Source: an uncultured Dehalococcoidales bacterium (lineage in GTDB: Bacteria; Chloroflexota; Dehalococcoidia; GIF9; UBA5629). From it: 64,000 nucleotides of DNA. Positions within the stretch are counted from its first letter, which is position 1, and each line of letters opens with the position of its first letter. The stretch lies in assembly GCA_964596125.1 (NCBI GenBank), contig CAZQRP010000018.1, forward strand, positions 4,245 to 68,244. Direction: 5' to 3'. Under the pieces are notes generated by a model. The model ran no database searches. It was not told the origin of the DNA and was given only the letters and a program-made list of their open reading frames with translations. Below, piece by piece: positions 58,999 to 60,342 of the stretch. A program made the position numbers and the translations under genes.

Positions 58999-60342
58999 AT
59001 GATCGAACCAAGAGAGATAGAAGAAGTCTCAAAACAACTCGGAGTCCATACATCGCATGTTCAGCGAGACTATGTGCATAGTTGGCTTTTATCCCAGCTG
59101 TATTCATCAAGTCCACTTGGAAAGCAACTTGTATTAAAGGGTGGAAACTGCCTTCGGAAGGCATACTTTGAAAGCGGGCGCTACTCACGTGACCTCGACT
59201 TCTCAACCACCATACGTATATCAGACTCTGATCTTGGACGGGAACTCAATGATGTCTGCCAAGCTCTGGGCAAACGTACCGGTATAATATTTGATACCGA
59301 GCGGACACGGATACAGGATAAACGTGGAGCTGACTTAGATAAAAATATCTCCGAAGCAAGGTTGTATTTCCGTGACTTCTTTGGCCAAGAGAGTGAGCTT
59401 ATTATTGGGGTTCGCCTCGATGTAACACAGTTTGATCGACTATATCTACCAGTTCAAGAACGCTACTTAATCCATCCGTATTCTGATGCCGATAATTGTT
59501 CAGCACTCATCCGGTGCATTAAGCTCGAGGAACTCTTGGCCACGAAGATGCGATGCCTTCTTCAAAGACGGCATATTGCAGATTTATTCGACCTTGCATA
59601 TGCAACACTACTCAGTCAAGAATTGGAGATAAACAGGGCAGAACTATTGTCAGTCTTCTTTAAAATAACCATATTTGGAAGGAGCCCAGGCGTCGCAAAG
59701 GGACTATTTATTGATCTTCCACTTGAGGTCCTCAGCAGGTTTTGGTCGAACTATATAGCATGTCCAAGGAAGTCTCGGTTCTCCTTCGAAATGGCGAAAA
59801 ATTACTTACTATCACTAGTAGATAGCTTAATCCCTGACAAAGCAATCCACGAGCGAAGCCCAATCATATTTCCCTCTTCTCTCAGAAACCCGATAATAGA
59901 GGCAGGACAGGTGCTTACTCTTCTCAAACTGAGATATGATGGGATTATGCGCCTTGTTGAACCATATTCCTTAGTTTTTAAGATGCGTCAGGATGGTATT
60001 GCTCGCGAGTACTTTTATGCGTATGATACAACAGGAGGGCATTCTGGACCGGGTATAAAGGCATTCTTACCAGGGAAGGTAGAATCTATAGAGAATACCG
60101 ATCAGCGATTTGAGCCGCGGTTCGAGGTGGAATTAAGTAAAGCAGGGGGTGCGGAAATTGCAGGGAGATTTGAGGGCCATCCGGGTTCGCGCAAAAACAT
60201 ATATGCTGGGTATCCACAATATAAGATACAATGCCCCTACTGCCTTCGTAGTTTCAAGCGCAGTAAATACGATACTAGACTAAATCCACATCAAGATCGA
60301 TATGGTAACCAGTGCCTTGGGCGAGTTGGCTACTTGTTATAA
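58999..60342 (+). CDS. AbiEii/DUF1814-type nucleotidyltransferase fused to a WYL-like beta-barrel and a C-terminal zinc ribbon
   Basis: NTase motif LKGGNCLRKAYFESGRYSRDLDF. Residues about 303-378, LKLRYDGIMRLVEPYSLVFKMRQDGIAREYFYAYDTTGG...IKAFLPGKVESIE, fit a WYL pattern. Residues 412-439 read CPYC...H...C. Confidence 0.7.
   Translation: MIEPREIEEVSKQLGVHTSHVQRDYVHSWLLSQLYSSSPLGKQLVLKGGNCLRKAYFESGRYSRDLDFSTTIRISDSDLGRELNDVCQALGKRTGIIFDTERTRIQDKRGADLDKNISEARLYFRDFFGQESELIIGVRLDVTQFDRLYLPVQERYLIHPYSDADNCSALIRCIKLEELLATKMRCLLQRRHIADLFDLAYATLLSQELEINRAELLSVFFKITIFGRSPGVAKGLFIDLPLEVLSRFWSNYIACPRKSRFSFEMAKNYLLSLVDSLIPDKAIHERSPIIFPSSLRNPIIEAGQVLTLLKLRYDGIMRLVEPYSLVFKMRQDGIAREYFYAYDTTGGHSGPGIKAFLPGKVESIENTDQRFEPRFEVELSKAGGAEIAGRFEGHPGSRKNIYAGYPQYKIQCPYCLRSFKRSKYDTRLNPHQDRYGNQCLGRVGYLL

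Follow-up and report, generated by a model that had tools for sequence, protein, structure and literature searches.

The window analyzed here is a 64,000-nucleotide (nt) stretch of the genome of an uncultured Dehalococcoidales bacterium (GenBank assembly GCA_964596125.1, contig CAZQRP010000018.1). At positions 58999 to 60342 of its forward strand lies an uninterrupted open reading frame (ORF) of 447 codons, and the encoded 447-amino-acid (aa) protein has three parts: an AbiEii-type nucleotidyltransferase (NTase), a WYL domain, and a C-terminal zinc finger that follows a flexible linker. The gene belongs to a large clade of AbiEii-WYL enzymes that retain the toxin active site and have no AbiEi antitoxin gene beside them. 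A first-pass annotation, made from the sequence alone, had recognized the NTase, the WYL domain, and the metal ligands, and profile, structure, and alignment evidence agrees with it on all three. The full-length AlphaFold model has a predicted local distance difference test score (pLDDT) of 82 and a predicted template modeling score (pTM) of 0.77, and the catalytic and metal-binding residues are invariant in full-length relatives whose identity to the window protein runs from 81% down to 40%. Coordinates of the gene, its parts, and its immediate surroundings are collected in Table 1.

The NTase domain is matched by Pfam AbiEii (PF08843) over residues 29 to 216 (E = 1.7e-23; 84 bits against a cutoff of 22.5) and by the PADLOC AbiEii model PDLC02304 over residues 1 to 274 (E = 7.9e-44). 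The best PDB matches of the full-length model in a Foldseek search are MenT4 (6y56) and MenT3/TglT (6j7p, 6y5u, and 8xhr), at E values of 4e-9 to 5e-8 and a probability of 1.00, which places the domain in the MenT/AbiEii fold; the WYL regulators DriD, PafBC, and BrxR come after the MenT structures. All relatives share the motifs LKGGN and RYSRDLDF with the window protein, and an alignment of 24 full-length members has K47, G48, G49, S63, D65, D67, F68, D141, K175, E177, E178, K183, R190, H192, D195, and D198 without exception. The Pol-beta-type motifs are thus all represented, with K47-G48-G49, D65-x-D67, D141 as the third acidic residue, and a helix carrying K175, K183, and R190. Twelve positions (K47, G48, G49, S63, D65, D67, D141, E178, K183, R190, D195, and D198) are at least 90% conserved both in the clade of the window gene and in the AbiEi-paired clade described below. 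The family profile alignment pairs 'LVLKGGNCLRKAYF..RYSRDLDFS' with 'LVFKGGTSLRKCRL..RFSTDLDFS' of MenT4, and the S63-x-D65-x-D67 spacing equals that of S78 and D82 of MenT3, residues that are named in PDB titles. From this spacing and the MenT4 alignment, S63 is a putative phosphoacceptor. With its conserved residues, the NTase is predicted to be catalytically competent. The degeneracy of catalytic residues that the first-pass annotation named as fatal to its proposal is not seen in the 24 relatives or in either clade.

The WYL domain is less readily recognized. Pfam WYL (PF13280) has no match to the window tail even at E ≤ 10, and direct Pfam and NCBIfam scans of the C-terminal 160 residues report no domain besides a weak zf-C2HC_2; an Spx match in the direct family scans is spurious. 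There is also no match when the whole protein is compared with PDB sequences by phmmer. A structural model of residues 286 to 447, built with 72 diverse tails (pLDDT, 84), consists in order of a helix, five strands, a disordered linker, and a small beta-rich metal-binding unit, and its top 17 Foldseek matches in the PDB are all WYL-domain proteins, including the DriD C-domain with single-stranded DNA, PafBC, CapW, and BrxR. CapW superimposes with a root mean square deviation of 2.9 Å over 93 columns, and classical Sm proteins rank after the WYL proteins. In a paralogue encoded elsewhere in the genome, the corresponding region scores above the Pfam WYL threshold (E = 5.7e-6; 26.7 bits against a cutoff of 21.8), and the window tail itself matches positions 324 to 394 of the 396-position PADLOC AbiEii model PDLC02317 (E = 5e-5). 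Given these three lines of evidence, the WYL assignment is sound despite the subthreshold sequence. Structure prediction, which the first-pass annotation had proposed as a check, thus recovers a WYL/Sm-like barrel, at about residues 293 to 370 where the annotation had about 303 to 378. The invariant residues of this region among the 24 members are Y313, R318, E321, Y323, E337, Y338, and D343. The canonical basic segment R-x-[FY]-R-x-D-R-I is altered, with GIKAFLPGKV in the window protein where the paralogue has LRSYRVDRI, and only K354 and F356 are retained.

The C-terminal finger has the ligands C412, C415, H431, and C439, all invariant in the 24 full-length relatives; in the alignment of 72 tails the CxxC cysteines never vary, and at least 90% of the sequences retain H431 and C439. 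Among PDB entries, a profile of the tail picks out the C2H2 fingers of Aart (E = 7e-4) and Gfi-1 (E = 3e-3), the shared pattern being Y-x-C-x2-C-G-K-x-F-x-R...L-x2-H. The Pfam zf-C2HC_2 match is weak, and pLDDT in the finger region is about 90. A zinc ribbon has two CxxC/CxxH knuckles, and only one CxxC is present here, together with H431 and C439. The C-x2-C...H...C ligands of the earlier 'zinc ribbon' are therefore real, but with a single CxxC plus H and C and a C2H2-like profile the unit is better called a C2HC finger. The linker that precedes it falls below a pLDDT of 50 at residues 383 to 405, a low-confidence and flexible region that varies in length and is rich in Arg and Lys in many relatives.

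The absence of an AbiEi partner extends well beyond this locus. No AbiEi is found in the window by tblastn, and the nearby ORFs match no AbiEi family. The source genome (3.2 Mb in 36 contigs) has exactly two AbiEii-type genes and one AbiEi gene, and the latter is on contig 1, where it lies directly upstream of the other AbiEii gene with a 4-nt overlap. This paralogue (genome G000, L085:6484-7866) codes for 460 aa, is 28% identical to the window protein over its full length, and ends in the same C-x2-C...H...C; its AbiEi (L085:5648-6487; 279 aa) matches both AbiEi_4 and AbiEi_1. We note that this two-gene AbiE system (region L085:3376-7866) has an N6/N4 DNA methylase gene about 1.3 kb away, on the other strand. 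When 80 loci around relatives of the window gene are compared by tblastn with 80 around relatives of the paralogue, an AbiEi homologue ends at the toxin start in 78 of the paralogue-type loci and in none of the window-type loci. The nearest maximal ORFs in the window clade (77 upstream and 73 downstream) likewise have no match to AbiEi Pfam families, and at the genome scale no AbiEi_4 match is present in 35 of the 50 genomes carrying a window-clade member. Among these AbiEi_4-free genomes are Patescibacteria of 0.7 to 1.3 Mb and an 11.6-Mb genome (G034) in which the locus is on a complete Kutzneria chromosome. The lack of an AbiEi partner, reported at first for the window gene, thus holds for its clade.

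No other conserved partner emerges. In all-against-all clustering of the ORFs within 3 kb of 82 loci, no family is present in more than nine, and the survey for conserved neighbors that the first-pass annotation suggested therefore comes back empty. The largest cluster, a generic XRE-type helix-turn-helix (HTH) protein, is present in 9 of the 82 loci at distances of 80 to 2300 nt and was rejected as a partner, as were the serine recombinases that form the next cluster, in only 8 of the 82.

In a maximum-likelihood tree the two clades lie at opposite ends of a branch 1.88 substitutions per site long, which has 100% support in the Shimodaira-Hasegawa-like approximate likelihood ratio test (SH-aLRT), a length to be read with the sampling in mind, in that the two sets were gathered by similarity to two different queries and intermediate lineages were not sampled. 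Among the paired-clade products of at least 380 aa, 74 of 76 have the WYL domain and 46 also have the finger. Because the paired clade and the paralogue have the same tail, the WYL(-finger) tail predates the divergence of the clades and occurs alongside AbiEi, and the lineage of the window gene either lost AbiEi or never had it. The C-terminal fusion is common to both paired and orphan clades, which weakens the earlier proposal that a WYL/zinc module replaces AbiEi: the same tail accompanies an AbiEi at 78 of 80 loci, the own-genome paralogue included. The NTase core, Ser63, and the barrel strand E-P-Y-x-L of the WYL domain are common to the two clades. Features particular to the orphan clade are E337-Y338-x-Y340 (within REYFYAYD), a GG-x-SGPG loop, K381 in the VELSKAGG segment at the start of the linker, and the loss of the basic WYL segment; judged by sequence, any of these might alter ligand binding or form a cis-inhibitory element.

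The family is large and patchily distributed. A search of a 5.8-billion-protein collection gives 1877 matches, and the best 120 of these are nearly all 440 to 470 aa long with 100% query coverage and identities from 81% down to 49%. Where the databases name them, they are an 'AbiEii/AbiGii toxin family protein' or a 'nucleotidyltransferase component of viral defense system'. When each species is represented by a single genome, at least 189 loci encoding relatives are found, in Chloroflexota, Proteobacteria, Planctomycetota, Acidobacteriota, Actinomycetota, Patescibacteria, and Omnitrophota. Two archaeal metagenome-assembled genomes (MAGs), of Promethearchaeota (L013) and Methanosarcinales (L077), also carry full-length members of the AbiEi-less clade; in the tree, the copy from Methanosarcinales falls among those of Patescibacteria. 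These archaeal copies imply either interdomain transfer or binning contamination. The window copy groups with copies from Chloroflexota, Sedimenticola, and Polyangiaceae. The protein tree departs from taxonomy and therefore points to horizontal transfer. Neighbors in the clade include recombinases, integrases, and assorted defense genes, and a PADLOC scan of upstream neighbors finds scattered defense genes with no family at more than two loci.

Searching 1.84 billion representatives with the tail profile returns 883 clusters, and in nearly all listed matches the tail is C-terminal, with the short matches resembling contig-edge fragments. No clear alternative fusion is evident among the matches listed; one 517-aa match (P0214) aligns at its N-terminus. 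Many short library proteins (P0131, P0154, P0161, and others) begin at position 15 of the tail profile, the conserved Met of NPIMEAG that is Ile in the window protein. These are probably contig-edge fragments called from their first Met, and it is possible that an internal start yields a free WYL-finger protein in some lineages.

Table 1. The AbiEii-WYL gene, its parts, and the adjacent features of the window
Feature	Coordinates	Strand	Remarks
Direct repeat, left copy (~300 nt)	57998..58308	+	tRNA-Asn 3'-end fragment, GIY-YIG remnant, and UDG-head-like piece
Hydrophobic protein, 139 aa, upstream	58462..58881	+	No family match; about four transmembrane segments, counted by eye
AbiEii-type NTase + WYL + C2HC finger ORF	58999..60342	+	Homologues full-length, 100% coverage
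AbiEii/MenT (DUF1814) NTase domain, residues 1-290	58999..59868	+	Pfam, PADLOC, Foldseek
Catalytic core, residues 47-67: K47-G48-G49 (motif I), S63-x-D65-x-D67	59137..59199	+	Conservation, MenT4 alignment
WYL domain (Sm-like SH3 barrel; helix and five strands), residues 293-370	59875..60108	+	AlphaFold2, Foldseek
Conserved FEPRF-VELSKAGG motif and flexible linker, residues 371-405	60109..60213	+	pLDDT, alignment
C-terminal C2HC zinc finger, residues 406-447; ligands C412/C415/H431/C439	60214..60339	+	Conservation, profile, pLDDT
112-aa protein, convergent, 37 nt downstream	60379..60717	-	No family match
Direct repeat, right copy	60836..61124	+	95% identical over 254 nt
UDG, uracil-DNA glycosylase.

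Direct repeats bracket a 2.8-kb block that contains the AbiEii-WYL gene and two small neighbors (Table 1), and the uracil-DNA glycosylase (UDG)-like piece in each resembles the 5' end of a family-4 UDG gene. The full repeat unit is absent elsewhere in the genome, where there is only a 36-nt match to the tRNA end, on contig 2. Five copies (60 to 100% identical) of a 55-nt segment coding for the N-terminus of family-4 UDG (…PGPLCERCPL…) lie between 57398 and 61295, and the sole ORF that starts with this UDG head (61231-61395) is cut short at 54 aa and shares 18 nt with a PIN gene. Recombination or insertion appears to have recurred at the UDG gene. The 'UDG-head scar' noted earlier ahead of the AbiEii-WYL gene is a degenerate copy of the junction repeat (60-74%), although it ends 4 nt before the ATG and not 15. 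The PIN-domain protein (163 aa; 61378-61869, minus strand; PIN_3 below the Pfam cutoff) is solitary, with no antitoxin-like partner seen, and is followed by a 238-aa protein with no family match (62280-62996, plus strand). These two genes sit between the AbiEii block and a GIY-YIG/tRNA-Asn array, in which two tandem units of ~320 nt (63145-63862) adjoin a tRNA-Asn gene at 63788-63862 on the minus strand. Each unit comprises a copy of the tRNA 3' end and an intact gene for an 88-aa GIY-YIG nuclease (63190-63456 and 63511-63777; identical proteins). The direct repeats around the AbiEii block are degraded copies of these units, which suggests that the tRNA gene was a target of insertion or homing more than once, and the region looks like the product of stepwise cargo accretion there. 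Just outside this repeat-rich island are a gene for an 855-aa MalT/LuxR-type regulator (52555-55122, plus strand) and, after it, two S-adenosylmethionine (SAM)-methyltransferase-like ORFs (55247-56203 and 56256-56903).

What such an enzyme might do can be gauged from the toxins that share its fold. Both MenT toxins and AbiEii block translation by adding nucleotides to the 3' ends of tRNA, and antitoxin-induced auto-phosphorylation switches MenT off as it does AbiEii. The AbiEii of Streptococcus agalactiae prefers UTP over CTP, and AbiEi binding leads to its auto-phosphorylation at T65, which abolishes activity and can be reversed by a phosphatase, such that the system is classed as type VII (2026 preprint); weak auto-phosphorylation also occurs without the antitoxin. 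The first-pass description of AbiE as a type IV system with a GTP-dependent toxin is outdated by this work. Makarova and colleagues proposed that WYL domains are sensors of nucleotides or nucleic-acid fragments (PMC4012209).

We lean, if modestly, toward reading the window gene as a stand-alone tRNA/RNA NTase effector that is restrained in cis, has a tail that binds nucleic acid, and is carried as island cargo beside tRNA-Asn. The enzyme would add nucleotides to the 3' ends of tRNA or other RNA as MenT and AbiEii do, and the consequent arrest of translation would make it an abortive-infection or stress effector. The WYL-linker-finger tail would be a nucleic-acid-binding module inherited from paired ancestors and serving as a sensor or a substrate clamp, and the linker, Arg/Lys-rich in many relatives, and the finger could fit either role. 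With no dedicated antitoxin, restraint would come from auto-phosphorylation of Ser63, from docking of the remodeled tail, or from both, in addition to control of expression. The clade would have lost its AbiEi gene and would travel as a single-gene cassette, here within the repeat-bounded 2.8-kb segment. Several points weigh against this view. We infer the toxicity, the substrate, and the trigger of the clade members alike, and the WYL pocket, being noncanonical in sequence, may have altered or lost ligand binding. E. coli carrying the S. agalactiae AbiE was not protected from any of 32 coliphages, and a defense role thus cannot be assumed for every member of the family. The incompleteness of MAGs could hide distant partners, and the genome-wide searches were for AbiEi of the AbiEi_4 and AbiEi_1 types.

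It is also possible, but less probable, that the protein is an abortive-infection sensor and effector in a single polypeptide, in effect a type VII-like toxin with a built-in antitoxin. The remodeled WYL domain, the VELSKAGG-linker, and the C2HC finger would then hold the NTase off, and the tail might promote auto-phosphorylation of Ser63 from within the same chain, a cis counterpart of the AbiEi loop that acts in trans. Binding of phage- or damage-derived nucleic acid to the tail would release the NTase.

We consider it unlikely that the enzyme is a domesticated, nontoxic NTase acting on RNA or tRNA 3' ends in RNA tailing, repair, or regulation, for which no antitoxin would be needed. Such a role would accord with the lack of any antitoxin or conserved partner in the sampled clade loci and with the persistence of the clade in tiny Patescibacteria genomes, and differences at N50 (T in the paired clade), R53 (K), and Q189 (E) could have retuned the NTase activity. 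However, the distribution is patchy and horizontally transferred, neighborhoods are variable and often of mobile or defense type, the gene here is cargo of an island next to tRNA-Asn, and all of the toxin active-site residues are kept, the phosphoacceptor Ser included. With patchy spread, a mobile context, and an intact active site, accessory defense or addiction fits better than housekeeping.

We regard it as improbable that the window protein is a second toxin of the one AbiE system in the genome, neutralized in trans by the AbiEi on contig 1. The count of two AbiEii genes to one AbiEi speaks for it, and both toxins share the architecture and the Ser-Asp-Asp core, but at 28% identity they are far apart and joined by a very long branch. 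Moreover, since 35 of the 50 orphan-bearing genomes are without AbiEi_4, trans-neutralization is not the general solution of the clade.

A local noncanonical partner is more improbable still. The first-pass annotation had raised pairing with the flanking membrane protein or the 112-aa protein, and either could in principle be an antitoxin or co-effector of the window copy, given that the three genes share one repeat-bounded block and that a consensus promoter (TTGACA-16-TATAAT; 58403-58430) precedes the 139-aa protein gene on the same strand, from which this gene may be co-transcribed with the AbiEii-WYL gene. A second promoter candidate, at 58976-59003, was discounted, as its -10 box contains the ATG. 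The upstream gene codes for a hydrophobic protein that reads as about four transmembrane (TM) segments, a count by eye. Neither neighbor has a family match, and in a tblastn comparison with 172 loci, 94 of them around relatives of the window gene, the four-TM, 112-aa, PIN, 238-aa, and GYD proteins have no homologue at any locus. The closest relatives of the AbiEii-WYL protein (71-73% identity) all have other neighbors. Because of these differing neighbors and the lack of homologues, the flanking genes are not partners of the family, and the proposed pairing is not supported. Least credible of all is a decaying remnant, an inactive leftover of an AbiE operon after antitoxin loss: scars abound nearby (the truncated UDG head, GIY-YIG remnants, and tRNA fragments), but the frame is full-length and open, the catalytic and metal-binding residues are invariant in relatives, and the orphan state is common to the entire clade, a conservation pattern that contradicts decay.

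The fusion architecture as such is already known, from a 2014 listing of WYL fused to an 'AbiGII-like nucleotidyltransferase (DUF1814)' (PMC4012209), from the PADLOC AbiEii model, and from generic database annotation. For an antitoxin-less clade of AbiEii-WYL enzymes we found nothing in the searchable literature. To our knowledge, the WYL/zinc-finger tail common to paired and unpaired AbiEii has never been studied. A large cross-phylum clade that keeps the catalytic residues and the phosphoacceptor Ser without an antitoxin raises the questions of how the enzyme is tolerated and how it is triggered, and the answer would tell whether the tail senses a trigger, clamps the substrate, or works as a built-in antitoxin. 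It also bears on whether single-gene AbiEii are to be counted as defense systems, which current two-gene AbiE definitions exclude. Annotators should be wary of labeling such a gene a broken AbiE system and of inventing partners from chance flanking genes.

Measured against known systems, the window gene lacks the adjacent AbiEi (COG5340) of the two-gene AbiE definition and has a Ser at the position of the Ser/Thr phosphoacceptor (S63). With the AbiEii proteins of Lactococcus lactis and S. agalactiae it shares the DUF1814/AbiEii NTase fold and motifs and a Ser/Thr two residues before the first catalytic Asp (T65 in S. agalactiae); unlike those AbiE systems it has no AbiEi, and it carries ~155 extra C-terminal residues on what in the classical toxins is a protein of roughly 290 aa. 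The Mycobacterium tuberculosis toxins MenT3/TglT (Rv1045) and MenT4 (Rv2826c), its best structural matches with motifs I and II aligned, consist of a single domain of about 290 aa and have MenA proteins as cognate antitoxins, and their identity to the window protein is 14-19%. DriD, PafBC, CapW, and BrxR share the Sm-like WYL barrel with the window tail, but these are transcription factors of the HTH-WYL-WCX type, whereas the window WYL follows an enzyme and precedes a finger, without an HTH. The closest comparison is the AbiEi-paired sister clade, which differs in having AbiEi immediately upstream (78 of 80 loci, with none in the window clade), in retaining the canonical basic WYL segment and reaching the Pfam WYL threshold, and in missing the finger from 30 of its 76 products of at least 380 aa. 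It otherwise has the same three-part architecture, with KGG, S-x-D-x-D, D141, K183/R190, the E-P-Y-x-L strand, and C-x2-C...H...C all held in common.

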